From Eledone cirrhosa (lineage: Eukaryota): a DNA stretch of 64,000 nucleotides. Under the pieces are notes generated by a model. It saw nothing but the letters and a program-made list of their open reading frames with translations. It did not search any database and had not been told where the DNA came from. A program made the translations under genes and the position numbers. The stretch's first letter is position 1. Each line of letters starts with the position of its first letter. Shown here one piece after another: positions 32,777-62,200 of the stretch. The stretch covers positions 17,670,001 to 17,734,000 of the forward strand of contig OZ024754.1 in NCBI GenBank assembly GCA_964016885.1. Direction: 5' to 3'.

Positions 32777-35143
32777 GTATGACATAGATGATAACTGGAA
32801 TTTCTTGCATGACAACTTACTGCAGGCTACTGAAGAGACTTGTGGTTGGGGCAGAGCTTCAACCAGACAGAGAGTGACCTGGGGGTCGAACAGCACAGTA
32901 GATAGGGCCATTAGAGAAAAAAGACTGGCTTGGAAAGCTTGGGAAAATGGTGGGAGTAGAGACGGATACACAGCCGCTAAGAGAGAAGCTAGACGTCAGG
33001 TGTACTTAGCACGCAGGGAGGCTGAGAGTAGGAGGTTTGCCAATGTTCTGCGATGGGAAGATCAGAGACGTGCGGTGTTCCACATTGCAAGGCAGTGTGT
33101 CAGTGCAAATCAGGATGTTGTTGGAGATAAGTGTGTCCGGAATGATGCCAGTGTACTTAGTGTCACGAATGATCAGAAAAAGAAGGCCTGGAAATGTCAT
33201 TATGAGAGACTGATGAATGTAGAGAACGAATGGGAGAGAGAGAAATTACCCTCAGTAGATCCGACAGAGGGACCAGCTATTGAGATTGACGAATATAGGG
33301 TCATCATCATCATCATCATCGTTTAATGTCCATCTTCCATGCTTGCATGGGTTTGGACGGGAATTTTCCCACTTGGGGCAAGATTGGTTGACTTGCTCGT
33401 ATAGGACTGTCTGGCGGGTTTGCTACGGCTGGATGCCCTTCCTAACACCAACCACGTTTACAATGTGGACTGGGAAGCAATTAAGGAAATGAAGAAGGGT
33501 AAGGCCACTGGACCGTCGGGGATAGTTGCTGAGATGATGAAGACTTCAGGAGAAGTAGGCACTAAACTAGTTGCATGCATCATTAATCAAGCTATATATG
33601 GTGGTGTCATACCCAAAGACTGGTGCAGCAGTATTCTCTTAAATTGTTACAAAGGTTAAGGGGTTGCTCTGGAGAGGAGCAATTAAAGGGGCATAAAACT
33701 GATGGATCAGGTTATGAAAGTGGCAGAGAGAATATTAGCACAACTAATTAGAGAAAGGGTCAATTTAGATGAGATGCAGTTTGGTTTTGTGCTTCGGAAA
33801 AGTACAACAGATGCCCTCTTCTTGGTAAGGCAACTACAAGAGAGGTTCTTAGAGAAAAATAAGCCACTATACTTAGCTTTTATTGACCTAGAGAAGGCCT
33901 TTGATAGGGTACCCCGATCTGTCATCTGGTGGTCCCTAAGGAAACTAGGTGTAGAGGAATGGCTTGTGAGGACAGTGCAAACTTTGTACAGAGGTACTCT
34001 CAGTAAAGTGAGAATAGGAATGGAGTTTAGTGAGGAATTCCATATAAAAGTAGGTGTACATCAGGGTTCGATCCTCAGCCCACTCTTGTTCATTATAGTC
34101 CTCCAAGCCATAACAGAGGAGTTTAAGACTGGATTCCCATGGGAACTTCTCTATGCTGATGATCTGGTTATTATAGCTGAATCAGTGGAGGAGCTAGAGA
34201 ATAAATTCTGGCTATGGAAACAGCAGTTGGAAGCAAGAGGACTGAGAGTGAACATAGCTAAAACAAAAGTGTTGATGAGTAGAAGAGAGGACAATACTCC
34301 GATTCCACCAGGGAAATGGCCATGTTCGATAAGTAGGAAAGGAACTGGCATAAATTCCATAAAATGTACGCAATGCAGATCTTGGGTACACAAGAGATGT
34401 AGTGGGGTAGCAGGCAAACTAACAGGTAGGGAAAACTACTTATGCAGTAGATGTACAGGGAAAGTTGGCAGTAGTAATCGCTATGATAGACTCATTTTTC
34501 CAATGCAGGTGGGTTCCATAAAAGTGGTTGATAGCTTCCGGTACCCAGGTGATCAGATTAGTATGGGGGGGGGGGGGTTCTGAGGCCATAGTGTCTAGAA
34601 TAAGGACGGGTTGGAAGAAGTTTAGGGAGCTGCTTCCTCTGTTGACAAAGAATGGTTTCTCCATGTATATGAAAGGACGGTTATATGATGCCTGTGTGAG
34701 ATGCGTGATGCTGCATGGTAGTGAGACATGAGCAGCAACTGGAGAAGATATGCGACGGCTGGAGAGAAATGAAGCAAGTATGCTCCGTTGGATGTGCAAC
34801 GTCAATGTGCATGAACGACTAAGCATAGATGAGTTAGAAAGAAACTGGGTATAAGAGGGATAAGTTGTGGTGTGCAGGAGAGGAGACTGAGATGGTATGG
34901 ACATGTGATGTGCATGGAGGATGACCGATGGGTGAAGAAGTGCCAGGAAGTCCCAGTGGAGGGAAGATGCAGTAGAAGTAGACCACGAAAAACATGGGCG
35001 GGGGTGGTGACAACAGACCTCAGATCGCTGAAACTCACCGAGGAGATGACGAAGGACCGTGACAAGTGGATGTGCTGAATAGGACCCGTCCAACCCTTGC
35101 AAGCAGGGAAAAGCGGACGTAAAATGATGATGATGATTATGAT
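32777..35143 (+). mobile_element. RTE-clade LINE, degenerate
   Basis: ORFs 32715..33326 and 33702..34583 (RT) and a (GAT)n tail. Interrupted at 33301-33472. Confidence 0.93.
33301..33472 (-). mobile_element. Short retroposon (RTE 3'UTR-derived or SINE tail) nested in an RTE
   Basis: (CAT)n followed by the reverse complement of the 3'UTR seen at 15100-15258. Related pieces at 43520-43685 (+) and 41090-41255 (-). Confidence 0.8.
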
Positions 35144-38400: not shown

Positions 38401-38546
38401 AAAACATGGGCGGAGGTGGTGAGAGCAGACCTTAAATTGCTGAAGCTCACGGGGTGACGAAGGACTGTAACAAGTGGAGAGATGCTGTACTGAATAGGAC
38501 CCGATCCACCCTTGCAAGCAGGGAAAAGCAGACTGATGATGATGAT
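35500..38546 (+). mobile_element. Near full-length RTE-clade LINE (APE plus RT), multiple stops
   Basis: VATLNVGTLTG, ISAYAPQ, AGDFNGHVG, EIDFLL (APE), then RT and a (GAT)n tail. Confidence 0.93.
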
Positions 38547-38573
38547 GTGTGTGTGTGTATTTATATATATATA

Positions 38574-40834
38574 GGCGACAAGTATACTTAGCTAGGAGGG
38601 AAGCAGAGGATAGAAAATTCAAGCATGTTTTACAACGTGAGGACCAGAAACAGGAGGTATTCAAGATTGCGAGGCAGTGTGTCAGAGATAGTTGTGATGT
38701 CATTGGAGAGAAGTGTATCCGGAATGATAAAGGTGAGCTTGCCCTCACAAGTGCTGAGAAGAAAGATGCATGGAAGAGTCATTATGATAGATTACTAAAT
38801 GAGGAGGATGCATGGGAAGAAGAGACCCTACCCCAAGTAGACCCTATAGAGGGACCAGCAGTACAAGTCAGCGGCAGCGTAGTAAGTAAGGCAATCAAAG
38901 ATATGAAGATGGGGAAGGCAACCGGTCCATCAGGTATAGCTGCCGAGATGCTGAAGGCATCTGGGTCTGTAGGTCACACGATAACCACACGTATCGTTAA
39001 CCAGGTAATACTAGAAGGGGCCATACCAAAAGATTGGTGCAGTAGCATCATTGTCAACTGCTACAAAGGTGAAGGCGATGCACTAGATAGAGGAAACTAT
39101 AGAGGTATAAAGTTGATGGACCAGGTCATGAAAGTAACAGAAAGAGTTATAGCACAGCTGATTAGGGACCGGGTGAAAATAGACGAGATGCAATTTGGGT
39201 TTGTACCAGGAAGAGGCACCACTGATGCCCTCTTCCTTGTGAGGCAATTACAGGAAAAGTACCTAGCTAAAAGTAAGCCACTCTACTTGGCATTTGTCGA
39301 CCTTGAGAAAGCCTTTGACAGAGTTCCACGTGCTGTAATCTGGTGGGCTCTTAGAAAACTAGGAGTAGATGAATGGCTTGTGAAAGCGGTACAAGCCATG
39401 TATAGGGGAGCAGTCAGCAAAGTTAGGATTAGCAATGAGTATAGCGAGGAATTTAGCGTACAGGTTGGGGTCCACCAGGGCTCTGTTCTTAGCCCTCTCC
39501 TGTTCATCATAGTCCTGCAGGCAATAACGGAGGAGTTTAAGACCGGATGCCCATGGGAACTCCTGTATGCTGATGACCTTGCACTCATAGCTGAATCTAT
39601 GGTAGAACTAGAGAATAAATTCCAAACCTGGAAGCAGGGACTAGAAAGAAAGGGTCTCAAAGTCAACATGACAAAGACTAAGATCCTTGTAAGTAGACGA
39701 GAAAACAGAATCCAGATCCCCTCAGGGAAATGGCCTTGCTCAGTATGTAGGAAAGGTGTAGGTAGGAACTCCATTCTCTGCCCCAAATGCAAACAATGGG
39801 TACACAAGAGATGTAGCGGGATCTCAGGAAGCTTAATTAAGAATGTAGGATTCACATGCAGCAGCTGTGCTGAGACAGCAAGCAGCAAACAGCCACAGGA
39901 AACAAGTACCATCAATCTCTGGGAGGGCCCTGTAGAAACAGTAGACAGCTTCTGCTACCTAGGTGACCGAATTAGCAACGGAGGTGGGTGTTCAGAAAGT
40001 GCAATAACTAGGGTAAGAACGGGATGGAAGAAGTTTAGGGAACTACTACCACTGCTAGCTGCAAAAGGCTTCTCCCTCAGAATGAAAGGCAGACTGTATG
40101 ATGTGTGTATCCGAACAGCGATGTTGCATGGTAGCGAGACCTGGGCGCTGAAGGTGGAAGACTTACGTAGATTAGAGAGAAACGAAGTCTGCATGCTCTG
40201 ATGGATGTGTAACAATAATATACGTGAACGACAAAGCATAAATGAATTGAGAGAGAGACTGAGCATAAGAGGAATCAAATGCTGTGTGCAGGAGAGGCGG
40301 TTGCGCTGGTATGGACATGTGATGCGTATGAAGGATGACAGCTGCATAAAAAGGTGCAGAGCACTAGAAGTTGATGGAAACCGCGGAGTGGGGAGACCCA
40401 ACATGACATGGGATGAGGTGATAAAAGCCGACCTTACCCAATTACACCTCTCAAAGACAATGACACACGACCGTGACTTCTGGCGTCACGCAGTAATACA
40501 GAGTACCCGACCTCCCATGGGTACAAGCTGAAGCATATAGACAATATGCCCCCCCCCCCCCACCGCAAGGTGGTCGTGGAGGTGCCACGGCAAAAAAGCA
40601 CCCAGCCCACACTGTAAAGTGGACGTGTAGGCGCCACGAAAAAGCACCCAGCACTCACTGTAAATGAGGTTGGTGTTAGGAAGGGCATCCAGCTGTAGAA
40701 ATCAAGCCAAATCAGTTCCTGTATGAGCAAGGCATGGTCAGCCGACCAGACACTGCCCACAACAGGACAACCCGTCTAACCCATGCTAGCGTGGAAGAAC
40801 GGACGTAAAACGGTGATGATGATGATGATGATGA

Positions 40835-41835: not shown

Positions 41836-42015
41836 CTTGTAACATTCTTATCTGTTCAACCAATGCTTTACATTTGGTAATCTCTTCTTCATAGACATTT
41901 TGTATTTGAATTACTTCTCTCTGAGAAAACTTCTTTTCTACATCTTTTTCACTAAGACGTTGGGTAAAATTGTTCTTCATTTCAGCGTATTCTAATTCAT
42001 ATTTCCCTTTCATCT
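41836..42015 (-). CDS. Coiled-coil repeat exon (4th in transcription order), 180 nt, phase 1-1
   Basis: caaattgaAG|AG ATG AAA...TTA CAA G|GTaaat; encodes EMKGKYELEYAEMK...EQIRMLQ. Confidence 0.8.
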
Positions 42016-42655
42016 CTTCAATTTGTTTGTGAAAATATTCAAATAGAAATGAAATGTTTATGTTAGGTTAATATTTATTAGATGTCACTATAAATATTTT
42101 GTCAATATTGAATGAATAATGATGTCATTCTTGACTTAACTTTAGTAATATTACAACTTATTGATCTAGAAGTAATTTAATAATTTGTACCATCTATAAT
42201 GTTTTATGTTGAGTTAATATAAATTACTTACATCTAGATATATGTATGGTTGAGATAGTTGATGTCTCTTTTTATGTCTCTCTCTCATATCAAGGTTTTA
42301 GAAAAAAAAACTGAATATCTTTGTATTTCACATGTGTGGTACCTACATTTAAATGTGGTCTGGGAATATAGAAATTTGTCTTAATCCAATAATTCTGGTC
42401 TTTGGAGGAAAGACAACACTCAGAATATATAGGTACAGAGAAAAGATGTGGATCTTTTGTTCAAAAGTTTTAATAATATCTTAAGTTGAATTTTATGTAA
42501 AAAATATGTAGGACATCCACTGTTTAGGTAAAAGTCTAATCAACAGACATCATACTAAACATAGAAGTTAAACCCTGAGTTAAAACTACATTTTCACATA
42601 TCAATCCTCAGTTATTATTGTTTTCATTTGCTATGACATCATGATATTTATTTAC

Positions 42656-42835
42656 CTTCCAACCTCTTTATCTCTTCCTCCAATGATTTACATTTAGCAG
42701 TCTCTTCTTTATAGGCACTTTTTATTTTAATAATTTCTTCCTTGTAAGCCTTCACTTCCTCATCTTTGTTGATGAGATTTTCATTCACGCTTTTCTTCTT
42801 TTCACTGTGTTCCAGTTCAGTTTTTAGTTTCACCT
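42656..42835 (-). CDS. Coiled-coil repeat exon (3rd), 180 nt, phase 1-1
   Basis: caaattgaAG|AG GTG AAA...TTG GAA G|GTaaat; in-frame stop immediately after the donor. Confidence 0.8.
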
Positions 42836-43134
42836 CTTCAATTTGTTTTTTGAAAATATTCAAATAAAAGTTAAATGTTAACTTAAGAATGATTAGATAT
42901 ATGAATTTTAAAAGAATATTTTATGAATTATGTACACACATGCTCACACACACGTGCTCCATAAGACAAAAGAAAAACTTTATACCAACCCTTAGCTATT
43001 TCTAGCTCTTTTCATAATCCCTGAAGATAACTTGGACTTTGACTCAACCTAAATGCACACACATGCATACACACTACAAAACAACAAAATGCAATCTGGA
43101 CCATTATGATAAGAAAAAGAATTTTCTTTTTTAA

Positions 43135-43330
43135 TCCTTTAGTTACCAATCCGGCCAAAACCGGCTCTGATTCAATGAATGTATATATATAAATATGTAT
43201 TAAAATATTGATTAATACATAAAAGTATTAATCATATTGTCTGACAAAAGTAAAGGTTAGCCAATGTGTTAAAAATAGTTACTATTAAAACCTTAAGTCA
43301 GCTCTACTAATAGAAAATTTGAGAAATTTC
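43135..43330. mobile_element. Fragment of a TTAA-associated MITE (piggyBac-like end)
   Basis: TTAA-TCCTTTAGTTACCAATCCGGCCAAAACCGGC resembles the inverted end at 47884-47919. Confidence 0.45.
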
Positions 43331-43401
<71 letters not shown>

Positions 43402-43429
43402 ATATATATATATATATATATAATATATA

Positions 43430-43519
<90 letters not shown>

Positions 43520-43687
43520 AATGTGGTTGGTGTTAGGAAGGGCATCCAACTGTAGAAAACCTGCCAGACAGTCCTATGCGAGCAAGACAATCACTCTTGC
43601 CTCAAGTGGGAATACCCCCGTCCAAACCCATGCAAGCGTGGAACACGGACGTTAAACGTTGATGATGATGATGATGATGATGATATA

Positions 43688-46600
43688 CTAGCAGTTTAGC
43701 CCGGCGTTGCTCGGGTTTGTTCATTTGCTATGAAAAGTTACATACAGGTAAACGTGGCTTGAAAGCGAATAAGCTTATCAATTAAGTGCATAAAGCAGTT
43801 GAACCGGTTATTAAATCTTACGAACCAATAACCATTTTCGACAATCAATGATGGGTTAATAATCTTCCAATAGCGAATTTAGTAGACCAAAGTTGCAAAA
43901 TGGTGGCCCTGATGCCACTGGGTGTCAGATTTGTCCGTTATGGGTGACCCTACCAGGAAATAGTTTTCCAGACGGCATAGCTCCAACATCTCCAACACCT
44001 GCACCAACATCTATAGCACCTCTTTGTAGACGATATTACGTGTCATCCCTTGAGGAGTGTAAGCAAAAGGTCCATTGCTACATGGTAACAGGCGACATAA
44101 AGTTGACCATGGGAGAAGCATGGCTCCCCCAAATAGATGCCCGCCACCGACAATGTTTGCCCTTGTGACTTGGACATGGCAAAACATAGTCTCACCGGGA
44201 ATTGGGATCGGCGGGAATCAAATGGGATATCTGACGCCGAGGGGAAAAGGTTCATCCTTGGAATGAAAACATTCTCCCCTCTCCCGCACCCCGTTACAAT
44301 GGTGGCCTCAATCAACTGTGGCGTCAGTGACTTGACGACCATGCGAGTACCGTTGCACTGCTTTGGTGGGTACAAGTTCCTTATTAGCATAATGGGAGAG
44401 CCAACCCTAAGCTTAAGAATGTGAGGTGGAAGCCCTGGGGGCTTAAGGGAATTTAATAACTCAACCGGATAATTAATGATATCGTTGGGGTCTGACATCC
44501 GGTCGATAGATTTGAAGATGTGCTCTTTACTGGGAATCTTCTCAATCCACTGCTCGTTAATAAAATTAACCATGGTATTTTTTGGAGCAAGGATGGCTCT
44601 TTCGCTGAGCCAATCGAGGTTTTTAAAGTTAGATGAGACATTAGGAAAAACTGCTTCCCAAAAGTCAGAAGGGATGCTCACAATGTTGCACAGGGAGTCG
44701 ATTGCTATGCCACCCTTGTCATCCGCAGGGACCTTTCCCTCACCAAGTGCTAAAATGTTCTGAGCAAATGCTGCAGACATGTTGTGACCATGCAAATGAG
44801 CACGCATATTTGTGCCCAGGTACAAACTCTTCACCTGGAGCCACAATATGGACGACTTAAGGCAGGCACGCACTTCATCAGCTTTTGTCCCTTTGGGGAT
44901 GACAGGCAGCGTTTGCCAAAAATCCCCTGATAGCAGAAGGGTTACACCACCCATAGGAGCCGTAGAATCCCTAATGTCTTTCAGGGTACTGTCCAATGCC
45001 TCAAGGGCACCCTTGTGTGCCATTGCGCACTCATCCCAAACAATGGGGCAACATTTTTTGAGAACCAGAGCTTCGTGTGAACTCTTGCTGATATTGCATG
45101 TTGGTGTCTCAGTTTTTATTAAATCCAAGGGGTGTTTAAAGGTTGAATGTGCTGTCCTACCTCCCGGCAGCAAAGTAGCAGCGATCCCGGACAATGCAAC
45201 GGCCAACGCAATTTTTTTCTCCTGATGAATCTTAGCGAGAATCAATTTCGTTACAAAAGTTTTTCCGGTACCCCCAAGAGCATCGAGAAAGTAAATACCC
45301 CCAGTCTGATTTTGAACCGCGTCAATGATAGTTAAATAGGCCAACCTTTGGTCCGACAGAAGTTTGGGCTCATTTTCCTCTAAGTATTGGGAAAGAGATT
45401 CGATGTCATATGCTGTTTCTCGCAACAAATCCGGGGCCAACGTATTAACTTCCTCTCTGACGGTTGACGGCAAGCCATACGTCACCACTCACTCCGACCC
45501 ATGTCGAGGAGGGTGTCCTCGATATCAATGAGTGCTCTGTTGTAGATAATGTCGCTGTAACCAACTTCCACTGAAGGATACTGCAGATGAGCCAGGTGCA
45601 GGAAGTCCTCAGACATGAAGTCTCTGTACTTAACCCATAAAGACTTTTGATTACCCAATTCACACTTTTGAAGCAAAATGGCAAAGAGTTCCCGTAGACC
45701 TTTAGGTGATTTCAACAAAGCACCCTCTGCTAAAGTGGAATCCCATTGCGAATCATCTTCCAAAAGACCACGCTTAAAGCAGGCTTCCCGGTACGTATCA
45801 CATATTTCTCCATTAACAGTTTTGAGGTCCTGAAAACTTTGTGGGCCTACAACTTCATGCAGAAGAAGGCAGAGATGAAAGCAGTCATGCTGACTTGGGG
45901 GCACAGTGTAAACCCTTCCAAGACAGCTGTCAAATTTTACACCAGGATTTCTTTCAACAGCCTGAGCTGACTTTCTTCACACCCAAGTATTTTTCGACCA
46001 TATAAAGTAGGATGGAACCTGGGGGTACACAATTGTTTGCGCAAATGTATTGAACTGGCAAAGTTTGAGAAACACGTCAGAGTGGTCTCTTTCGGATCGG
46101 TGGCCAACTTGGCGGCGGTTTGGTCCGTAAAGTAAACCCTTTGCCCATTTTCCAAGTGTACCGCAAGCTGTATGATGGTGGGGTGCCGTTGGTGTAGGGG
46201 TAAACCAAATAGGCGCCAAAAAGCTTCATTGCTACTGATGTACCACCTCGCCAGGTATTCTGTAACTAGTCCCTGCTATTTTCAGCTTGAAATGCGAACA
46301 TTGCGGCATCAGAGCCCTTATTTACATATTTGCATATGTATTTTATTGACTTGATGGAGTTGCGAAACTCAACGTTGATGTAGGCGTTGAACATCTTCAA
46401 GAGAAGTGGGCAGTAAGGGACCACCCATCTATTGTCAACTTGACCTCTCCTTTACTGTTGTGGTGAAGCCACTGTTCTCGGGCTGTCTCCGCCTGTACAG
46501 GGGGTACCCATCGCCACCAGTCTGAGTCTGGTCAACAAATTTTTGGGGGTATCCCTTACTGCACGACCCCCCCCCCCTTTCAGACACGTGTGATGCTCAT

Positions 46601-47406
46601 TAGGACCCGATGCACACGGACCATGAATCATGTTACCTTTGACGATGTCATGTAATTCCTGGTCAGTTTCTGGGTTAGGGATTTCAGCCGAAATGAAGCT
46701 GTCTATGGCATTTGAATTGATTTTATCAGCTAACCAAATCAAAATGTGAGCATGTGGCAGCCCTCGTTTTTGCCATTCGACGGTGAACATGTCACATTTT
46801 ACAGCCCCAAATACCTGACCCTTTTTGATTAAAGCCATGAGTTTAGCCAGTTTCAGTCTGAACACTCTGGCAATGAGGTCATGTCTGTTCGAATAATTTT
46901 GCCCAGGAAAAAGTTCACAGGTTACATTCCGATTCATGTGTCTATAGCATTAATCTGTTATATGAAGTGTTATTTTGCGGGTTGTTATTTGCAATAAGCC
47001 GATTGAAAATGCCCCAGATAAGCCGTATGTCAATACAGAACGCTCCACTGCAGTGTTGTCATATAGGGAGTGAAGAGCGACAAAGAGAGTAAAGCAGTTA
47101 AATTATAGAGAGAGGGAATATACGGAATGCTCCATTTGATCATACACATTCTTTCTCTCTCTGCAGTGTTGTCATATAGGGAGTGAAGAGCGACAGAGAG
47201 AGTAAAGCAGTTAAATTATAGAGAGGGGGAATGATCATGATAGATTTTTGCCCTTATTGTTGATGGATTTGAAATTTTTTTGCTTCATGACCTTTTCTTG
47301 ACCAAAAGCAATAATTGTCCAGACTTTGTATAGAATCCGTTGGAAATTGTGGACGTGAATCCGTTACAAACCTTAACACACACATCCTCAGATTTATATA
47401 TATAGA
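43688..47406 (-). mobile_element. Helitron (internally deleted, degenerate RepHel) with both termini
   Basis: 5' TC at 47406. 3' hairpin CCCGAGCAACGCCGGG plus CTAG at 43688. Inserted between A and T. Rep motif VEWQKRGLPHAHILIW and PIF1 helicase motifs. Confidence 0.95.
44043..45488 (-). pseudogene. Helitron PIF1-like SF1 helicase domain
   Basis: FLDALGGTGKTF, IVWDECAM, LSGDFWQTLPV, QFPVRLCFAM, KSQGQTL, FSHGQLYVA; frameshifted before the terminal TRNIVYKEVL*. Confidence 0.92.
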
Positions 47407-47420
47407 TATATATATATCAA

Positions 47421-47509
47421 GTTTAATATAGAAATGGCTTCTACAGGACTAGAACTGTTTTAATTGAATGAAACAGTTCTAGTACTGTAGAAGCCATTTC
47501 TATATAAAC
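47421..47509. repeat. Short palindrome (~40-bp arms)
   Basis: TATAGAAATGGCTTCTACAGGACTAGAACTGTTT / AAACAGTTCTAGTACTGTAGAAGCCATTTCTATA. Confidence 0.9.
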
Positions 47510-47915
47510 CCTTTAGAATTTATATTACTCTATATATACTTTTGTATTCTTTATCTTACATAATATCTCAAATAATATTGAATTTACGAGATTTTGATGT
47601 TATTTATTTTGAGAACAATACCTTAACATCAGTATGAGCAGCCAGTTTGAACAGAAAGAGATGAGAGAATTCTGGCCGTATATGGCCGGTTTACATTACA
47701 CTATATTCACATTACTCTATATATACTATTATATTTTCATGGTAAAGGCTTTACCTCATATAATTATCTCACATAATATCGAATCTATGAGATTTTGCAA
47801 GTATTTATTTTGAGAACAATATGTTAACATCAGTTTGAGCGACCAGTTACAGTCAGTTTCAACAGAAAGAGGTAGAGAATTCTGGCCGGTTTTGGCCGGT
47901 TTGAACACTAAAGGG
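47509..47915. mobile_element. piggyBac-like MITE with internal ~190-bp tandem duplication
   Basis: TAAA|CCCTTTAG...CTAAAGGG|TTAA termini; 47524-47695 is repeated at 47711-47905. Confidence 0.65.
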
Positions 47916-48074
47916 TTAAACTTTGTGTTTACACTCTACTAAAGTATTGAGTACTTTACTTGCTGTGGCTACCCCCAATTGAATCTGGGATTCACATACA
48001 TATATCATTACAAAAGTAAATGCATTCCTTTTGTTAACTTATATTCAATGGCTTTGTCTTATTATTATATTTAC

Positions 48075-48254
48075 CTTCCATCCTTTTTATCTGTTCCTCC
48101 AGTGAATCACATTTGGAAAGTTTTTCTTCATAACCACTTTGTAATTTAACCACTTCTTTCTTCGAAGCCTTCACTTCTTCATCGTTTTCTCTGAGATGTT
48201 TCTTCAGTTCTTTCTTCGTTTCATCATATTCCAATCCACCTTTTGCTTTCATCT
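48075..48254 (-). CDS. Coiled-coil repeat exon (2nd), 180 nt, phase 1-1
   Basis: caaattgaAG|AG ATG AAA...ATG GAA G|GTaaat. Confidence 0.8.
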
Positions 48255-48634
48255 CTTCAATTTGTTTTTGAAAATATTCAAATAAAATGAAATGTTATGT
48301 TAGGCTAATATTTATTAGATGTCATTATAAATATTTTGTCAATATTGAATGAATAATGATGTCAATCTTGACTTAACTTTAGTAATATTACAACTTATTG
48401 ATTTAGGAAGTAATTTAATAATTTGTACCATCTATAATGTTTTATGTTGAGTTAATATAAATTACTTACATCTAGATATATGTATGGTTGAGATAGTTGA
48501 TGTCTCTTTTTATGTCTCTCTCTCATATCGAGGTTTTAGAAGAAAAAAAACTGAATATTTTTGTATTTCACATGTGTGGTACCTACATTTAAATGAGGTC
48601 TGGGAATATAGAAATTTGTCTTAATCCAAGAATT

Positions 48635-49666
48635 TTTGTTTGTGGCATATATTAATGACATAGATGCCAACTTAAAGAATGCCACAGTACTAAAGTACGC
48701 AGATGACATCAAGCTGTACCTTGAGATAAAAAGGACAGATCCTGAACACTATAGATCTTGCTTGCAGTGTGACCTGGACACAATGCAACAATAGATCTCA
48801 GACCGCAACTCAAGCTAGCTGTGGACAAGTGCACCACCATGCATTTTGGGAGTAAAAACCCAGCGCCCACAAACTCCCTCCACAGCACTAATATCAAGAA
48901 GTCTTCTTGTGAATCTGACCTGGGCATTATGGTCAGCAGCGATTTGCGTTGGACGAAGCACGTCTCTAAAATTGTCAAGAGGGCTGAGGGTATCTTAGCA
49001 TCACTCAGCAAGATCTTTGTCAGCCGCTCTCCAGCTATCTATTTAAGGCTGTACATGGCTATGGTGCGGCCACACTTAGAATTTGCATCACCAGTCTGGA
49101 ACCCCTATCTTGCTCAGAACATTGACCGCCTGGAAACTGTTCAGAGACGTGCAACCAAGCGAATACCCTCCATCAGGCATCTACCATATTCTGAGCGCCT
49201 TGCTTCCCTGGCATGGATACATTGAAGCTCCGACACCTGGCAACTGACTTGGTAAACACCCACAAAATTGTTAACCATCTTGCCAACAACAACCCTGAGT
49301 ACCCTTTTGATTTCCATGTGTCTAACACACGTGGACATGCCCACAAAGTCAGAAAACAGCACAGTTCCCATGACTTTCGGAAACATTTTTTCATGCTCAT
49401 AGTTGCTGAAGCATGGAACAAACTACCTGCATCAGTTGTTAGCTGTCGAGACACTGCATCCTTTAAAACCTCCATGCTTCCTGAGATTCGCCAACACTAC
49501 ACCTAATGTTCCCCCTCCATACACATACACACATGTATATCATGACTCATACACTATTCACTTCCCTGACATTTGTATATTATTTTATGTACTATACATG
49601 CACCTTTGATGAGTTGTAGTGTACCTGAGCACTTTACACAATCATTTTATTATTATTATTATTATT
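48635..49666 (+). mobile_element. CR1-group LINE 3' fragment
   Basis: YINDID..KYADDIKL, SDLGI, VRPHLEFASPVWNPY, LETVQRRATK and an (ATT)n tail. The empty site is preserved in the paralogous intron at ~42390. Confidence 0.92.
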
Positions 49667-49943
49667 AATTCTGGTCTTTGGAGGAAAGACAACACTCAGA
49701 ATATATAGGTACAGAGAAAAGATGTGGATCTTTTGTTCAAAAGTATCAATAATATCTTTAGGAGTTGAATTTTATGTAGAAAATATGTTGGATATCCACT
49801 GTTTGGGTAAAAGTCTAATCAACAGACATCATACTAAACATAGAAGTTAAACCCTGACTAAACTACATTTTCACATGTCAATCCTCAGTTAAACTCTTCC
49901 AGGTAATTTTTGTTTTCATTTGCTATGACACCATTATATTTAC

Positions 49944-50123
49944 CTTTCAAACTGTTTATCTCTTCCTCCAATGATTTCCATTTATCAATCTCTTCTAAAT
50001 AGGCACATTTTAATTTATTTACTTCTTCCTTCGAAGACTTCACTTCCTCATCTTTTTCTCTGAGACGTTCCATCAGATCTTTCTTTATTTCACTGTATTC
50101 CAATTCAGCATTTACTTTCAAAT
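49944..50123 (-). CDS. Coiled-coil repeat exon (1st visible), 180 nt, phase 1-1
   Basis: tgaattgaAG|AT TTG AAA...TTG AAA G|GTaaat; an in-frame TGA just upstream fixes the acceptor position. Confidence 0.8.
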
Positions 50124-50273
50124 CTTCAATTCATTTTTGAAAACATTCAAATAAACATGAAATGTGACGTTAGCAGGGATAAGATATCAGATAAATATCT
50201 TTTTCATAGTGTATGAATTAGGACTTTATTTAATTTATTTTTATTTCTCATAGATATAATGTAAACTACGAAC

Positions 50274-53200
50274 ACACACACACAGACATACACAGACATA
50301 CACAGACATATACAGACATATACAGACATACACAGATATACACAGATACACACAGACATACACAGACATACACAGACATACACAGACATATACAGACATA
50401 TACAGACATACACAGATATACACAGACATACACAGACATACACAGACATATACAGAGATATACAGATATACACAGACATACACAGACATATACAGACATA
50501 TACAGACATATACAGACATACACAGACATATACAGACATACACAGACATACACAGACATATACAGACATACACAGATATACACAGACATACACAGACATA
50601 TACAGACATATACAGATATATACAGACATATACAGACATACACAGACATACAAAGACATATACAGACATACACATACACACACAGACATATACAGACATA
50701 CAAAGACATATACAGACATACACAGATATACACAGACATATACAGACATATACAGACATACACAGACATATACAGACATATACAGATATACACAGACATA
50801 CACAGACATACACAGACATATACAGACATACACAGACATACACAGACATATACAGACATACACAGACATATACAGACATACACAGACATACACAGATATA
50901 CACAGATATATACAGACATACACAGACATATACAGACATACACAGACATATACAGACATATACAGACATACACAGACATACACAGACATACACAGACATA
51001 TACAGACATACACAGACATACACAGACATATACAGACATACACAGGCATATACAGACATATACAGACATACACAGACATACACAGACATACACAGACATA
51101 CACAGATATACACAGATATATACAGACATACACAGACATACACAGACATACACAGACATACACAGACATATACAGACATACACAGACATACACAGATATA
51201 CACAGATATATACAGACATACACAGACATACACAGACATACACAGACATACACAGACATATACAGACATACACAGACGTACACAGACATCCACAGACATA
51301 TACAGACATACACAGACATATACAGACATACACAGACATACACAGACATACACATACATATACAGACATACACATACATACGCAGACACACACAGACATA
51401 CACAGATATACACAGATATATATACAGACATACACAGACATACACAGACATACACAGACATATACAGACATATACAGACATACACAGACATCCACAGACA
51501 TATACAGACACACACAGACATACACAGACATACACAGATATACACAGAGACACAGACACACACAGACATACACAGACATATACAGACATACACAGACACA
51601 CACGGACATACACAGACATGCACAGATATACACAGATATACACAGACATACACAGACAAACACAGATATACACAGACATACACAGACATATACAGACATA
51701 CACATACATATGCAGACACACACAGACATACACAGACACACACAGACATACACAGACATACACAGATATACACAGAGACACAGACACACACAGACATACA
51801 CAGACACACACAGACACACACAGATATACACAGATATACACAGATATACACAGACACACACAGAGACACACAGGCATACACAGACATACACAGACATACA
51901 CATACATATACAGACATATACAGACATACACAGACATATACAGACATACACAGACATACACAGACATACACAGACATACACAGACATACACAGACATACA
52001 CAGAGATACACAGACATATACAGACATACACAGACATACACAGATATACACAGATATACACAGACATATACAGACATATACAGACATACACAGACATACA
52101 CAGACATATACAGACATACACAGACATACACAGACATATACAGACATACACAGACATAGACAGACATACACAGACATACACAGATATAAACAGACATACA
52201 CAGATATACACAGACATATACAGACATATACAGACATACACAGACATACACGGACAAATACAGACATATACAGACATATACAGACATATACAGACATACA
52301 CAGACATACACAGACATACACAGACATACACAGATATATACAGACATACACAGATATACACAGACATATACAGATATATACAGATATACACAGATATATA
52401 CAGACATACACAGATATACACAGACATACACAGACACACACAGATATATACAGACATATACAGACATACACAGTCATACATAGACATATACAGACATATA
52501 CAGGCATATACAGACATACACAGACATACACAGACATACACAGACATATACAGACATATACAGACATACACAGATATATACAGACATACACAGACATATA
52601 CAGACATACACAGACATACACAGACATATACAGACATACACAGACATATACAGACATATACAGACATACACAGACATACACAGACATACACAGACATACA
52701 CAGATATACACAGATATATACAGACATACACAGACATACACAGACATACACAGACATATACAGACATACACATACATACGCAGACACACACAGACATACA
52801 CAGACACACACAGACATACACAGACATACACAGATATACACAGAGACACAGACACACACATACATACACAGACATATACAGACATACACAGACATACATA
52901 GACACACACAGACATACACAGACATACACAGATATACACAGAGACACAGACACACACAGACATACACAGACATACAGACATACACAGACACACACAGACA
53001 TACACAGACATACACAGATATACACAGATATACACAGACATACACAGACAAACACAGATATACACAGATATACACAGACATACACAGACACACACAGACA
53101 CACACAGATATACACAGATATACACAGATATACACAGACACACACAGAGACACACAGACATACACAGACATACACAGACATACACAGACATACACAGACA

Positions 53201-56200
53201 TACACAGACATATACAGACATACACAGACATATACAGACATACACAGACATACACAGACATACACAGACATACACAGACATACACAGACATACACAGACA
53301 TATACAGATATACACAGACATACACAGACATATACAGACATACACAGACATACACAGACACACAGAGACATACACAGACATATACAGACATATACAGACA
53401 TACACAGACATACACAGACATACATAGACATACACAGACATATACAGACATACGCAGACATACACAGACATACACAGATATACACAGATATACACAGACA
53501 TATACAGACATATACAGACATACACAGACATACACAGACATATACAGACATACACGGACAAATACAGACATATACAGACATATACAGACATATACAGACA
53601 TACACAGACATACACAGACATACACAGACATACACAGATATATACAGACATACACAGATATACACAGACATATACAGATATATACAGATATACACAGATA
53701 TATACAGACATACACAGATATACACAGACATACACAGACACACACAGATATATACAGACATATACAGACATACACAGTCATACACAGACATATACAGACA
53801 TATACAGACATATACAGACATACACAGATATACAGACATACACAGACATACACAGACATATACAGACATATACAGACATACACAGACATACACAGACATA
53901 CAGAGACATATACAGACATACACAGATATATACAGACATACACAGATATACACAAACATGCACAGACATACACAGACATACACAGACATATACAGACATA
54001 CACAGACATACACAGACATACACAGACATACACAGACATATACAGACATATACAGACATATACAGATATACACAGACATACACAGACATACACAGACATA
54101 CACAGACACACACAGACATATACAGACATATACAGACATACACAGACATATACAGGCACACAGACACACACAGACATACACAGACATATACAGACACACA
54201 CAGAGACACACAGACATACACAGACATATACAGACACACAGACACACACAAACATACACAGACATACACAGACATACACAGACATACACAGACAAACACA
54301 GATATACACAGACATACACAGAGACACACAGAGACACACAGATACACACAGACACACAGACATACACAGAGACACACAGACATACACAGAGACACACAGA
54401 CATACACAGTGACACACAGACATATACAGACATACACAGACACACACAGATATACACAGACAGACACAGACACACACAGAGACACACAGACATACACAGA
54501 TATACACAGATATACACAGACACACACAGAGACACACAGACATACACAGAGATATACAGACACACAGACACACACAGACATACACAGACACACACAGAGA
54601 CACACAGACATACACAGATATACACAGATATACACAGACACACACAGAGACACACAGACATACACAGACATACACAGATATATACAGACATACAAAGACA
54701 CACACAGACATACACAGACATACACAGACATACACAGACATACACAGAGATACACAGACATATACAGACATACACAGACATACACAGACATATACAGACA
54801 TATACAGACATACACAGACATACGCAGACATATACAGACATATACAGACATACACTGACATATACAGATATACACAGACATACACACACAGACATACACA
54901 GACATACACAGACATACTCAGACATACACAGACATACACACACAGACATACACAGACATACACAGACATACACAGACATACACAGACATACACAGACACA
55001 CACAGAGATACACAGACATATACAGACATATACAGACATACACAGACATACACAGACATACACAGACATATACAGACATACACAGACATACACAGACATA
55101 CACAGATATACACAGATATATACAGATATATACAGACATACACAGACATATAAAGACACACAGACATACACAGATATACACAGACATACACAGACATATA
55201 CAGACATACACAGACATACACAGACATACACAGACATATACAGACATACACAGACATACACAGTCATACACAGACATACACAGACATATACAGACATATA
55301 CAGACATACACAGACATACACAGACATACACAGACATATACAGACATACACAGACATACACAGACATACACAGATATACACAGATATATACAGATATATA
55401 CAGACATACACAGACATATAAAGACACACAGACATACACAGATATACACAGACATACACAGACATATACAGACATACACAGACATACACAGACATACACA
55501 GACATATACAGACATACACAGACATACACAGTCATACACAGACATACACAGACATATACAGACATATACAGACATACACAGACATACACAGACATACACA
55601 GACATACACAGACATACACAGATATATACAGACATACACAGATATACACAGACATACACAGACATACACAGACATACACAGATATATACAGACATACACA
55701 GATATACACAGACATATACAGACATATACAGATATACACAGATATATACAGACATACACAGATATACACAGACATACACAGACACACACAGATATATAGA
55801 GACATATACAGACATACAGAGTCATACACAGACATATACAGACATATACAGACATATACAGACATACACAGACAAATACAGACATATACAGACATATACA
55901 GACATACACAGATATACACAGACATACACAGACATACACAGACATACACAGACATATACAGACATATACAGACATACACAGACATACACAGACATACACA
56001 GACATACACAGACATATACAGACATATACAGACATACACAGACATACACAGACATACACAGATATATATAGACATATACAGATATATACAGACATACACA
56101 GACATACACAGACATACACAGACATATACAGACATATACAGACATATACAGACATACACAGACATAGACAGACATACACAGACATACACAGACACACACA

Positions 56201-59200
56201 GACATATACAGAGACACACAGACATACACAGACATACACAGACATACACAGACACACAGATACACACAGACATACACGGACATATACAGACACACACAGA
56301 GACACACAGACATACACAGACATATACAGACACACAGACACACACAGACATACACAGACATATACAGACACAGAGACACACAGACATACACAGACATATA
56401 TAGACACACAGGCACACACCAACATACACAGACATACACAGACATACACAGACAAACACAGATATACACAGACATACACAGATATACACAGACACACACA
56501 GACATACACAGATATACACAAACATACACAGAGACACACAGAGACACACAGATACACACAGACATACAGACATACACAGAGACATACAGACATACACAGA
56601 GACACATAGACATACACAGAGACACACAGACATACACAGAGACACACAGACATATACATACATACACAGACACACACAGATATACACAGACATACACAGA
56701 CACACACAGAGACACACAGACATACACAGATATACATAGATATACACAGACACACACAGAGACACACAGACATACACAGACATATACAGACACACAGACA
56801 CACACAGACATACACAGACACACACAGAGACACACAGACATACACAGACATACACAGATATATACAGACATACAAAGACACACACAGAGACACACAGACA
56901 TACACAGACATACACAGACATACACAGACATACACAGACATATACAGACATACACAGACATATACAGACATACACAGACATACACAGACATACACAGACA
57001 TACACAGATATACACAGAGATACATAGACATATACAGACATACACAGACTTACACAGACATACACAGACATATACAGACATATACAGACATACACAGACA
57101 TACGCAGACATATACAGACATATACAGACATACACAGACATACACAGACATACACAGACACACACAGACACACACAGACATACACATACATATACAGACA
57201 TATACAGACATACACAGACATACACAGACATACACAGACATACACAGACATATACAGACATACACAGACATACACAGACATACACAGATATACGCAGATA
57301 TATACAGATATATACAGACATACACAGACATATAAAGACACACACACATACACAGATATACACAGACATACACAGACATATACAGACATAGACAGACATA
57401 CACAGACATACACAGACATATACAGACATACACAGACATACACAGTCATACACAGACATATACAGACATATACAGACATATACAGACATACACAGACATA
57501 CACAGACATACACAGACATACACAGACATACACAGATATATACAGACATACACAGATATATACAGACATACACAGATATACACAGACATACACAGACACA
57601 CTCAGATATATACAGACATATACAGACATACACAGACATATACAGACATACACAGACATACACAGACATACACAGACATACACAGATATACACTGATATA
57701 TACAGACATACACAGACATACACAGACATACACAGACATATACAGACATATACAGACATACACAGACATACACAGACATACACAGACATATACAGAAATA
57801 CACAGACATACACAGACATATACAGACATACACAGTCATATAAAGACATATACAGACATACACAGACATACACAGACGTACACAGACATACACAGATATA
57901 CACAGATATATAGAGACATACACAGACATACACAGACATATACAGACATGCACAGACATACACAGACATCCACAGACATATACAGACATACACAGACATA
58001 TGCAGACATACACAGACATACACAGACATACACAGACATATACAGACATACACATACATACGCAGACACACACAGACATACACAGACATACACAGATATA
58101 CACAGAGACACAGACACACATAGACATACACAGACATATACAGACATACACAGACACACACAGACATACACAGATATACACAGATATACACAGAGACACA
58201 GACACACACAGACATACACAGACATATACAGACATACACAGACATACACAGACACACACAGACATACACAGACATACACTGATATACACACAGACACAGA
58301 CATACACAGACATACACAGACATACACAGATATACACAGATATACACAGACATACACAGACAAACACAGATATACACAGACATACACAGACATACACAGA
58401 CACACACAGACACACACAGATATACACAGATATACACAGACACACACAGAGACACACAGACATACACAGACATACACAGACATACACAGACATACACAGA
58501 CATACACAGACATATACAGACATACACAGACATATACAGACATACACAGACATACACAGACATACACAGACATACACAGACATACACAGACATACACAGA
58601 GATACACAGACATATACAGACATATACAGATATACACAGACATACACAGACATACACAGACATATACAGACATACACAGACATACACGGACACACAGAGA
58701 CATACACAGACATATACAGACATATACAGACATACACAGACATACACAGACATACACAGACATATACAGACATACACAGACATACACAGACATACACAGA
58801 TATACACAGATATATACAGATATATACAGACATACACAGACATATAAAGACACACAGACATACACAGACATACACAGACATACACAGACATATACAGACA
58901 TATACAGACATACACAGACATACACAGACATACACAGACATACACAGACATATACAGACATATACAGACATACACAGACATACACAAACATACACAGATA
59001 TATACAGACATATACAGACATACACAGACACACACAGACATATACAGACATACACAGACATACACAGACATACACAGACATACACAGACATACACAGATA
59101 TATACAGACATACACAGATATACACAGACATATACAGATATATACAGATATACACAGATATATACAGACATACACAGATATACACAGACATACACAGATA

Positions 59201-62200
59201 TATACAGACATATACAGACATACACAGTCATACACAGACATATACAGACATATACAGACATATACAGACATACACAAACATATACAGACATATACAGACA
59301 TACACAGACATACACAGACATACACAGACATATACAGACATACACAGATATATACAGACATACACAGATATACACAGACATACACAGACATACACAGACA
59401 TACACAGACATACACAGACATACACAGACATATACAGACATATACAGACATACACAGACATACGTAGACATACACAGACATACACAGACATACACAGACA
59501 CACACAGACATACACAGACATATACAGACATATACAGATATACACAGACATACACAGACATACACAGACATACACAGACATATACAGACATATACAGACA
59601 TACACAGAGATAGACAGACATACACAGACATACACAGACATACACAGACATACACAGACATACACAGACGCACACAGACATATACAGACATACACAGACA
59701 TACACAGACATATACAGACATACACAGACATACACAGTCATACACAGACATATACAGACATATACAGACATATACAGACATACACAGACATACACAGACA
59801 TACACAGACATACACAGACATACACAGATATATACATACATACACAGATATACACAGACATACACAGACATACACAGATATATACAGACATACACAGATA
59901 TACACAGACATATAGACATATACAGATATACATAGATATATACAGACATACACAGATATACACAGACATACACAGACACACACAGATATATACAGACATA
60001 TACAGACATACACAGTCATACACAGACATATACAGACATATACAGACATATACAGACATACACAGACATATACAGACATATACAGACATATACAGACATA
60101 CACAGATATACACAGTCATACACAGACATATACAGACATATACAGATATACACAGACATACACAGACATACACAGACATACACAGACACACACAGACATA
60201 CACAGACATACACAGACATACACAGACATACACAGACATACACAGACACACACACACAGACATACACAGACATACACAGACATACACAGACATACACAGA
60301 CATACACAGACACACACAGACATACACAGACATATACAGACATATACAGACATACACAGACATACACAGACATACACAGACATACACAGACATATACAGA
60401 CATACACAGACATACACAGACATACACAGATATACACAGATATATACAGATATATACAGACATACACAGACATATAAAGACACACAGACATACACAGATA
60501 TACACAGACATACACAGACATATACAGACATACACAGACATACACAGACATACTCAGACATATACAGATATACACAGATATATACAGACATACACAGATA
60601 TACACAGACATACACAGACACACACCAATATATACAGACATATACAGACATACACAGTCATACACAGACATATACAGACATATACAGACATATACAGACA
60701 TACACAGATATACACAGACGTACGCAGACATACACAGACATATACAGACATATACAGACATATACAGACATACACAGACATAGACAGACATACACAGAGA
60801 TACACAGACATACATAGACATACACAGATACACACAGACATATAGAGAGACACACAGACATACACAGACATACACAGACATACACAGACACACAGATACA
60901 CACAGACATACACAGACATATACAGACACACACAGAGACACACAGACATACACAGACATATACAGACACACAGACACACACAGACATACACAGACATATA
61001 CAGACACACACAGAGACACACAGACATACACAGACATATACAGACACACAGACACACACAAACATACACAGACATACACAGACATACACAGACAAACACA
61101 GATATACACAGACATACACAGATATACACAGACACACACAGACATACACAGATATACACAGACATACACAGACATACACAGACATATACAGACATACACA
61201 GACATACACAGACATACACAGATATACACAGATATATACAGATATATACAGACATACACAGACATATAAAGACACACAGACATACACAGATATACACAGA
61301 CATACACAGACATATACAGACATACACAGACATACACAGACATACACAGACATATACAGACATACACAGACATACACAGTCATACACAGACATACACAGA
61401 CATATACAGACATACACAGACATACACAGACATACACAGACATACACAGACATACACAGATATATACAGACATACACAGATATACACAGACATACACAGA
61501 CATACACAGACATACACAGATATATACAGACATACACAGATATACACAGACATATACAGACATATACAGATATACACAGATATATACAGACATACACAGA
61601 TATACACAGACATACACAGACACACACAGATATATAGAGACATATACAGACATACACAGTCATACACAGACATATACAGACATATACAGACATATACAGA
61701 CATACACAGACAAATACAGACATATACAGACATATACAGACATACACAGATATACACAGACATACACAGACATACACAGACATACACAGACATATACAGA
61801 CATATACAGACATACACAGACATACACAGACATACACAGACATACACAGACATATACAGACATATACAGACATACACAGACATACACAGACATACACAGA
61901 TATATATAGACATATACAGATATATACAGACATATACAGATATACACAGGCATACACAGACACACACAGACATACACAGATATATATAGACATATACAGA
62001 TATACACAGACATACACAGACATACACAGACATACACAGACATATACAGACATATACAGACATATACAGACATACACAGACATAGACAGACATACACAGA
62101 CATACACAGACATACACAGACACACACAGACACATACAGAGACACACAGACATACACAGACATACACAGACATACACAGACACACAGATACACACAGACA

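Follow-up and report, generated by a model that had tools for sequence, protein, structure and literature searches.

A 64,000-nt stretch of the Eledone cirrhosa genome (the window; C14:17670001-17734000) lies entirely inside gene B, a 255-kb duplicate of the neighbouring octopod NuMA gene (G000:C14:17844984-17590064, minus strand). Four exons in the window are units 9 to 12 of a tandem array of 48 units of a 180-nt type, which spreads over 161 kb of one chromosome. We put at about 0.55 the probability that this 48-unit NuMA duplicate encodes a protein of ~3,300 residues with a Hook-type head, a ~400-nm rod and a membrane anchor, and that this protein acts, bound to a membrane, as a long dynein adaptor or tether.

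The repeat exons and their array

The four segments lie on the minus strand at 49944-50123 (u09), 48075-48254 (u10), 42656-42835 (u11) and 41836-42015 (u12), each 180 nt long with AG before and GTAAAT after. All are phase 1-1, open only in the frame starting at base 3, and when spliced by script they give a single open, E/K-rich frame, in agreement with an earlier note on this DNA. Amino acid identity within two pairs, given there as 45-57%, was recounted at 34/59 (58%) for the first and third segments and 26/59 (44%) for the second and fourth, with 25-34/59 over all six pairs. In DNA contigs from three runs, three of these exons were fully covered and one partly, with zero differing letters; the runs come from one sample of one study and are possibly the assembly's own source. 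The contigs are DNA-like and uninformative on expression, and no unit-to-unit joint was found among the 15 of 254 joints examined.

The introns between these exons, all on the minus strand, are of unequal size. The u11|u12 intron (640 nt, 42016-42655) is one of six near-identical introns of an array-only family with a core mismatch of 2.7%, and the u09|u10 intron (1,689 nt, 48255-49943) belongs to the same family, interrupted by a ~1-kb high-copy repeat. The u10|u11 intron (5,239 nt, 42836-48074) contains a broken Helitron with Rep and PIF1 helicase pieces (44043-46949). Most of the u12|u13 intron (42,058 nt) occupies 1-41835, packed with retroelement pieces, and u13 starts 223 nt before window base 1. 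Part of the u08|u09 intron (35,549 nt) occupies 50151-64000 and carries a 10-nt satellite in 1,380 copies (50272-64000). The ~27 nt at the intron end before u09 (50124-50150) are former NuMA coding sequence that now forms the acceptor region, with a branch-like motif just upstream, and equivalent acceptor regions precede u10 (48255-48281), u11 (42836-42862) and u12 (42016-42042).

Where the earlier note saw an array of four, the array holds 48 copies, itself a lower bound because a 200-N stretch sits inside it. A 292-nt first repeat exon (C14:17763170-17762879) and 43 further units lie outside the window. All of at least 41 protein matches to the unit fall within 305 kb of C14 in a single orientation, and the unit matches no Pfam family; a dispersed transposon, which the earlier note had named as a possible refutation, or a satellite was rejected as its source. 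The 40 full-length units are all open in the phase-1 frame and none is open in either other frame. AG is present at the acceptor of all 47 units after the first, a YTAAY branch-like motif lies upstream of it in 46 of the 47, and AG occurs 7 times in the 50-nt stretches preceding the 48 units, where 51 were expected (minimum 36 in 1,000 shuffles). By these four properties the segments are not chance products. A further AG, which might serve as an alternative acceptor, lies two bases downstream in 31 of the 47. The units are likely spliced as exons, at junctions predicted from the DNA sequence.

The reading frame is open throughout the array. The 48 units contain no stop in 2,818 codons, and flanks read in the ancestral frame carry stops in 17/47 cases upstream and 26/40 downstream; neutral simulation of 40 units gave ~74 stops, with a minimum of 49. 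Length variants that keep both splice sites (171, 171, 174 and 102 nt) are all multiples of three, and one proline occurs in 2,360 array residues. The units differ at about half of their residues (exon divergence ~28% at the nucleotide level), dN/dS among them is 0.76-0.80, near neutral, and the donor is lost in 3 of the 48. Selection would be purging stops and frameshifts and keeping the hydrophobic core while tolerating most amino acid changes; the three donor-less copies could be skipped at no cost, as is predicted for u07, u17 and u31.

Gene B and its NuMA parent

The gene B model comprises 60 exons, all with AG/GT boundaries, and 9,906 nt, with a single terminal stop and an open frame of 3,301 aa. 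Twelve head and first-coil exons (C14:17844984-17767087) precede the first repeat exon, and three 3' exons (C14:17601290-17590064) end in a hydrophobic tail; all are on the minus strand and outside the window. One 62-nt head exon (C14:17824998) was picked for phase fit, its likeness to the O. bimaculoides homologue being weak. The predicted protein consists of a Hook-type head, a repeat rod of 2,665 aa and the C-terminal tail. The rod is 37% E+K with a hydrophobic period of 3.53 residues over the array, as the earlier reading of the unit as 8 heptads plus 4 predicts, and is consistent with a long central coiled coil predicted to extend ~400 nm. The tail has a hydropathy of 2.23 over 19 residues (3282-3300) and is likely seated in a membrane as a predicted transmembrane segment. 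A host gene with symmetric phase-1 exons coding for a coiled-coil repeat, as the earlier note proposed, is borne out; the note did not recognise the protein, missing the NuMA paralogue, the Hook-type head and the hydrophobic tail.

The head was assigned by profile and structure. A profile of four octopod heads matches Hook3/Hook1 (E 0.0015-0.006) and NuMA 6qja (E 0.23). Foldseek gave NuMA 6qja as the best match (E 3.6e-3) for a fold model of the NuMA head of O. bimaculoides, built from its alignment with three homologues (mean pLDDT 63.6); the model is not of gene B's own head, which aligns nearly gap-free to those octopod heads. In a wide structure search, other calponin-homology domains score as well as NuMA (Z 9.5, rmsd 3.4, 117 aligned). 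A single-sequence head model was poor (pLDDT 53), a single-sequence PDB search was uninformative, and a Pfam search returned no Hook family match.

The parent, gene A, lies upstream of gene B, with exons found at C14:17953015-17877558. It shares 70% identity with the O. bimaculoides "nuclear mitotic apparatus protein 1" and carries the NuMA C-terminal tail, a stretch whose PDB matches are human NuMA chains only (6hc2, E 0.005). The head exon has two copies in the genome, one in gene A and one in gene B. NuMA's last 270 residues have no matching exon in the 95 kb downstream of gene B. Because the LGN-binding/NLM/microtubule-binding tail is absent, gene B is a NuMA-derived paralogue and not a NuMA.

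Homology shows the unit to correspond to the final 60 codons of NuMA's 3.4-kb rod exon; gene A's own unit is at C14:17907017-17906838. An open frame of 1,162 aa, considered as a retrocopy, is the big exon of this intron-rich gene. The unit was freed from the big exon when an AG inside former coding DNA came to serve as an acceptor, the ~27 nt before it becoming intron and NuMA's own donor closing the exon. Neither gene A nor the 5' part of gene B yielded a source for the intron DNA upstream of these former coding bases. The 292-nt first repeat exon is likewise derived from the big exon, by internal deletion; it switches phase 0 to phase 1, and the array therefore joins head and tail in frame. 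A symmetric exon can be copied in tandem without disturbing the frame. Expansion would have proceeded by such copying, and the star-like topology of the unit tree suggests an early burst.

Just past the gene B tail exon there is an orphan, near-identical fragment of a NuMA exon, so dead fragments do arise at this locus. With junctions read from DNA alone, a dN/dS near 0.8 and three units without a donor, the array could on this precedent be a segmental repeat of NuMA DNA, non-coding or recently dead, within an intron or pseudogene. We regard this as highly improbable: stops are absent at 28% divergence while adjacent flanks are rich in them, every acceptor is retained, the entire 60-exon model is in frame, and annotated homologues exist in Octopus and Argonauta.

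Near-identical introns between divergent exons

The six near-identical introns mutually differ by 2.7%, whereas the exons that flank them differ by 30.8% and 27.1%; in round terms, some introns are ~97% identical and exons ~70% alike. At the acceptor, divergence jumps from 6.9% over the final 30 nt of the intron to 23% over the first 30 nt of the exon. The array contains several intron families, distributed irregularly along it. In one unit pair the sharing covers a 572-nt intron (1 mismatch) and extends over half of the exon upstream and 34 nt of the one downstream. Of 20 matches to the shared intron, 19 lie inside the array, and a transposon origin for it was rejected on this count. The earlier note took the window's exons for a duplicated pair. 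The pairs share mainly the intron, because their exons, at 79% and 72% nucleotide identity, lie close to the family mean of 72% and are no nearer to each other than units taken at random. A single homogenised intron flanked by such exons is the better reading of the arrangement.

The contrast between introns and flanking exons indicates that the introns are likely being homogenised by gene conversion. Recombination between copies would be ongoing; it would mostly homogenise entire introns, its tracts ending in or at exons, and exons would remain ~28% apart despite it. Exon mosaicism found no significant support in a patch test, where 30 pairs had runs of at least 25 nt against a shuffled mean of 18 and maximum of 49.

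Diversifying selection of the kind seen in reproductive or conflict genes, accelerating exon evolution after recent block duplications, would give the same contrast without intron conversion. It fits the closest pair, u21 and u32, where 7/180 exon and 5/918 intron positions differ (p 0.001), a 7-fold excess in the exon, with all seven exon differences non-synonymous; conversion alone does not predict this. Likewise, the A-B shared tract has 15/332 differences in exons and 8/500 in introns, and 13 of the 15 are non-synonymous, though clustered at the tract end; between species, the Octopus homologue of gene B is 84.5% identical and NuMA 92.6%. However, synonymous sites in intron-sharing pairs differ by 23-46%, ~10 times the intron value, outer flanks of the intron-sharing blocks align over at most 107 nt, and exons flanking a common intron resemble each other no more than random units do (p 0.91 and 0.28). 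Acceleration in place of conversion is therefore improbable; exon acceleration and intron conversion may act together.

Diverse exons between homogenised introns would also suit a Dscam-like cassette, in which one or few units are chosen per transcript to give many short isoforms with different surfaces. Any subset of units stays in frame, units differ at about half of their residues, and homologues in Octopus have annotated skip isoforms: in O. bimaculoides and O. sinensis one repeat-derived segment (59 and 47 aa) is dropped in frame. Stop-bearing copies would be cheap in such a cassette, yet none of the 48 has a stop and donor damage is confined to three. Rfam found no structured RNA in the shared intron; its four matches, all below the gathering score, fall in an unrelated hairpin at 47428-47504. 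We hold this choice mechanism to be distinctly unlikely. Transcripts of gene B probably retain most of the units as a rule, and occasional skipping would shift the length of the rod in 9-nm steps. Such length tuning, proposed in the earlier note, has indirect support in the Octopus isoforms.

The array recalls spider silk, where in Argiope MaSp2 near-identical introns (97.6% on average) delimit the repeats (PMC9779670); the flagelliform gene is cited there as likewise having repeated, homogenised introns. In MaSp2, as that source describes it, the exons are also highly homogenised, whereas gene B exons are ~70% identical and the protein is predicted to be an intracellular coiled coil.

Relatives and predicted function

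Tailed NuMA paralogues occur in O. bimaculoides (XP_014769243-46, XP_014772238), O. sinensis (XP_036363438/39) and Argonauta (GAB1599846). Their database names are myosin-, golgin- or COP1-interactive-like, and no source name found describes a NuMA paralogue. They resemble gene B in the head (in every case where the N-terminus is recorded), the 3' exons and the hydrophobic tail (hydropathy 2.19, 2.23 and 1.67 in O. bimaculoides and Argonauta, NuMA having no such tail), but have 2-3 scored unit copies (about three) against 48. XP_014769243 shares with gene B a 15-aa deletion and identical last-unit boundaries; in XP_014772238 the rod is instead lengthened by three large multi-exon blocks. One O. 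bimaculoides isoform shifts frame exactly at the last-unit start and another stops 1 residue past the unit end, which is what use of the same acceptor and donor would produce. Adjacency of the homologous genes in Octopus and Argonauta is suggested by consecutive accession numbers and a shared longest contig.

The tree singles out neither Octopus paralogue as the orthologue: gene B groups with gene A at 62/52; grouping it with the short Octopus paralogue was not rejected (p-AU 0.23), and grouping with the long one gave p-AU 0.097. A HMMER search with the unit returned 7 proteins at E 0.001 and 3 at 1e-10, all three octopod, with at most 4 stretches each. It found no annotated many-unit protein among the 50% representatives, and neither did a word search with the unit alignment, a weak method, among longer proteins. 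A literature search, which mostly left aside subscription journals, found nothing on this topic in print.

Gene B shares with its parent family, NuMA/Mud/LIN-5, descent by tandem duplication, the Hook-type head and a long coiled coil, and its repeat comes from the NuMA rod exon itself. It differs in lacking the C-terminal LGN-binding/NLM/microtubule-binding/NLS tail, in ending with a hydrophobic segment, and in building its rod from 48 mini-exons where NuMA uses one large exon. Human NuMA is reported to be ~210 nm long (PMC8047419, PMC11812572), and the predicted gene B rod is about twice that. The architecture that gene B most works like is that of C. elegans ZYG-12 and vertebrate KASH5, which are described as having a dynein-binding head (Hook in ZYG-12), a coiled coil and a C-terminal membrane anchor (PMC10071310, PMC3777164), although gene B derives from NuMA. 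Gene B has the C-terminal transmembrane segment of KASH proteins, as predicted from hydropathy. KASH proteins are described as having a luminal peptide of 20-30 residues terminating in PPPX (PMC3777164), whereas in gene B about one residue follows the hydrophobic segment and PPPX is absent.

Tail-anchored golgins (giantin, golgin-84 and CASP) are likewise described as very long coiled coils that carry a transmembrane segment at the C-terminus (PMC4707255). Gene B differs from them in its Hook-type head, and no homology was found; golgin Pfam families gave nothing above cut-off for 6 proteins. Identity as a GRIP golgin of the golgin-245 type was rejected, there being no GRIP match at the locus and both genome matches lying on other contigs. 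The match in architecture and size to these golgins (PMC4707255) would accord with a passive tether, a giant tail-anchored spacer like giantin whose head no longer engages dynein. So would the ~4-fold faster evolution of gene B than of gene A (branch lengths 0.48 and 0.11) and the absence from gene B of two NuMA exons downstream of the head. The head exons are intact, though, with the N-terminal part 56% identical to NuMA over 505 columns, and the head is kept in every tailed paralogue with a recorded N-terminus. We consider loss of dynein binding unlikely.

The likely function of gene B is that of a membrane-anchored dynein adaptor or long tether. By analogy with the biology of NuMA, ZYG-12 and KASH5, the head would bind the dynein light intermediate chain, the tail would insert in a membrane and the rod would set the distance between them. 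Going further, an octopod NuMA copy may have become a membrane-anchored dynein adaptor independently of ZYG-12/KASH5 and, in the Eledone lineage, an adjustable ruler: 45 spliceable 60-residue modules would set the distance from motor to membrane in 9-nm steps up to ~400 nm, whole-intron exchange anchored on exon ends would keep the array, and selection would diversify exons for in-register dimer pairing. We offer this fuller account as speculative and rather unlikely in its entirety.

If true, a tail-anchored NuMA derivative would add to ZYG-12 and KASH5 another way of making a transmembrane dynein adaptor, one that is present, yet misnamed, in the Octopus and Argonauta proteomes. The locus keeps the parent and, next to it, the product, so that the emergence of a symmetric exon within a coding exon can be followed base by base, as can its expansion from ~3 to 48 copies. 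The 97% introns between 70% exons form a clean natural experiment for locating the limits of gene conversion, and the same contrast bears on whether repeat proteins are selected to differ from their neighbours.

The repeat array and its gene

As the earlier note had claimed, four 180-nt segments lie on the minus strand of the window (49944-50123, 48075-48254, 42656-42835, and 41836-42015); on re-reading of the sequence, each is preceded by AG, followed by GTAAAT, and open in the phase-1 frame only. Pairwise identity among them is 42-58% for protein and 68-79% for DNA, in keeping with the divergence first reported. One unit searched against the 3.0-Gb genome gave at least 41 matches from 55 candidates, every one on the minus strand of contig OZ024754.1 (C14) within a 305-kb span. 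On this contig the window occupies C14:17670001-17734000. A profile search of the 464 kb surrounding the window recovered 49 strong copies, of which 48 lie at C14:17763057-17602026 (units u01 to u48, the four segments being u09 to u12) and one at C14:17907017-17906838. Forty of the 48 units are 180 nt long, stop-free, and bounded by AG and GT; four lack some multiple of 3 nt but retain both splice sites (171, 171, 174, and 102 nt), u01 is the 3′ end of a 292-nt exon, and three are damaged (GT lost in two, one truncated by a TA repeat). Array introns are 151 to 42,058 nt long (median, 970). A 200-N stretch lies between u40 and u41 (C14:17613299-17613498), and units may be missing there.

The remaining copy, the 49th, forms the 3′ end of a 1,162-codon open frame in an upstream gene (gene A). 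This frame is 70% identical to "nuclear mitotic apparatus protein 1" (NuMA) of Octopus bimaculoides, other exons of which map collinearly from C14:17953015 to 17877558. Several results uphold the name NuMA: the C-terminal stretch of the NuMA protein matches two human NuMA chains only in the PDB (E values, 0.005 and 0.56), a head profile built from four octopod sequences matches Hook3 and Hook1, and the best Foldseek match of a head model (O. bimaculoides NuMA) is the NuMA Hook domain (E value, 3.6e-3; no match at E 0.001). In a wider structure comparison, the head model gave NuMA a Z score of 9.5, level with other CH domains.

The head exon has two genome matches, in gene A and in a second set of head exons downstream (gene B). 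Gene B runs from head to first coil, 48 units, and three 3′ exons, which match NuMA post-rod exons; the last diverges from them to finish in a hydrophobic stretch followed by a stop. The model, which omits the three damaged units, comprises 60 exons with AG/GT ends over 254,921 bp (9,906 nt; 3,301 amino acids; single terminal stop); its weakest link is a 62-nt head exon chosen from four candidates by phase fit. The phases fit together as they would not by chance: the pre-array exon ends in phase 0, the 292-nt exon converts phase 0 to 1, every repeat is 1-1, and the post-array exon opens in phase 1. We put the probability that gene B is a real, protein-coding gene at roughly nine in ten, and its units are predicted to be spliced. 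At 0.1485 nm per residue, the predicted rod of 2,665 residues would be ~396 nm long; it has 37% E+K, a hydrophobic period of 3.53, and 1 proline in 2,360 residues.

Birth of the exon and octopod relatives

The ~27 to 30 nt upstream of each acceptor resemble the NuMA coding sequence there (58-84% per 10-nt bin), and the likeness drops to 12-35% farther upstream. This stretch now holds in-frame stops in 17 of 47 copies, has lost the competing AG of the parent (7 AG seen versus 51 expected), and, in 46 of 47, lies 3′ of a branch-like motif. The acceptor of the 292-nt exon likewise falls inside DNA that was once coding, midway along the big NuMA exon. The unit donor is that implied by annotated NuMA of O. 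bimaculoides and Argonauta, in whose proteins the unit runs directly into the next exon. Homology shows how the exon was born inside a NuMA coding exon. DNA 3′ of the donor (locus L038, region 2779-2838; downstream of most units) is a former coding extension, dead in the array and likewise in gene A; ~44 extra codons past the donor are translated in the long Octopus and Argonauta paralogues. Unit u15 and gene A share a 12-nt gap in this stretch.

The closest relatives of the locus proteins, by protein database comparison, are from Octopus and Argonauta. O. bimaculoides has NuMA and two paralogues that have a hydrophobic tail like that of gene B, and Argonauta has at least one such paralogue. 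The short paralogue (XP_014769243; 918 amino acids, three scored units) shares a 15-residue deletion with gene B, the tail of which is nearer in sequence to the long paralogue (XP_014772238). Isoforms of the short paralogue, database annotations known from protein sequences only, include or lack in frame a 59-residue repeat-derived segment, change frame precisely where the last unit begins, or stop one residue beyond its end; an O. sinensis homologue has a corresponding 47-residue skip. The Octopus isoforms put splice sites at the unit boundaries found in the Eledone array. A profile search of 1.84 billion representatives found no annotated many-unit protein. In a second tailed paralogue (P0001, P0002, and P0004, from O. 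bimaculoides, O. vulgaris, and Argonauta), the rod is longer by two to three large multi-exon blocks, each ending in the same 60-residue unit; here the rod grew independently from the same exon end. A genome search found no Eledone counterpart.

Genes A and B share 97% identity over 834 nt (C14:17769221-17768388 versus 17922743-17921912, exons and introns). A second tract, also of exons and introns, is 94% identical over 270 nt (C14:17833564-17833298 versus 17949723-17949454). These tracts represent DNA exchange between paralogues 120 to 150 kb apart, partly because of which the tree leaves the orthology of gene B unsettled. An orphan, truncated, near-identical copy of an exon of gene A, together with the intron that precedes it (C14:17585500-17585306, minus strand), 4.5 kb beyond the gene B tail exon, appears to be a recent fragment or conversion tract.

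Introns and other elements

Six introns, of which two lie in the window, are 2.7% divergent once the first 110 columns are set aside (235 mismatches among 8,716 pairwise positions), whereas the exons flanking them differ by 30.8% upstream and 27.1% downstream; divergence jumps abruptly at the acceptor. The shared intron is array specific (7 copies at 94-100%, elsewhere one 76% match). Contig depth in DNA sequencing run X1 is 41 to 43 for this intron versus 10 to 17 for exons (~3×), and the intron copies are therefore present in the reads. Further families show 0.2-0.9% in introns versus 12-34% in exons, except for one exon pair at 4%. Synonymous and nonsynonymous divergence is equal in intron-sharing pairs, their exons are no more similar than random units, and the outer flanks of the shared blocks align over at most 107 nt. 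One unit pair shares a ~690-nt tract that begins mid-exon and stops 34 nt inside the next exon. The pattern suggests that introns were converted or replaced, anchored on exon ends. In the closest pair, 7 of 7 exon changes are nonsynonymous and exon divergence is 7-fold above that of the intron, an excess that speaks against conversion alone, so some diversifying pressure is possible. Spider silk genes also have repeated homogenised introns, but their exons are homogenised too (PMC9779670), unlike the diverged exons here.

The intron between u10 and u11 holds a broken Helitron (44043-46949, minus strand; Helitron_like_N and PIF1 helicase pieces), high-copy as judged by contig depth, and that between u08 and u09 holds 1,380 copies of a 10-nt satellite (50272-64000) that extends past the window end. 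Plus-strand retroelement copies at 17627-18463, 33687-34583, and 38546-40201 encode reverse transcriptase followed in one frame by a PHD-finger match (3 of 10 open frames scanned; PHD scores near the cutoff). A fragment of an LTR retrotransposon, carrying RNase H and integrase domains, lies at 6271-8172 (plus strand). An imperfect inverted repeat (47395-47538; 146 nt, 79%), which adjoins a high-copy repeat and has below-threshold miRNA-family matches, is probably a transposon hairpin.

Constraint and predicted role

All 48 units together contain no stop in 2,818 codons. Neutral simulation with the observed substitution spectrum gave 74 expected stops in 40 units, with none of 500 runs below 49, and left 6 of 40 open. 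The dN/dS of the units is 0.76-0.80. Frame, splice sites, and hydrophobic core are preserved, with most residues free to vary, a pattern that would fit a spacer with most units translated in most transcripts.

The N-terminal part of human NuMA activates dynein via its Hook domain (PMC11812572, PMC8047419), and ZYG-12 and KASH5 couple a head of this kind to a membrane anchor (PMC10071310). Gene B shares this plan, with such a head and a predicted membrane anchor, but differs from KASH proteins in lacking the luminal PPPX peptide described for them (PMC3777164) and from NuMA in lacking the spindle tail. The best description of the gene B product is a NuMA derivative, predicted to be tail-anchored, that would serve as an adaptor or tether.
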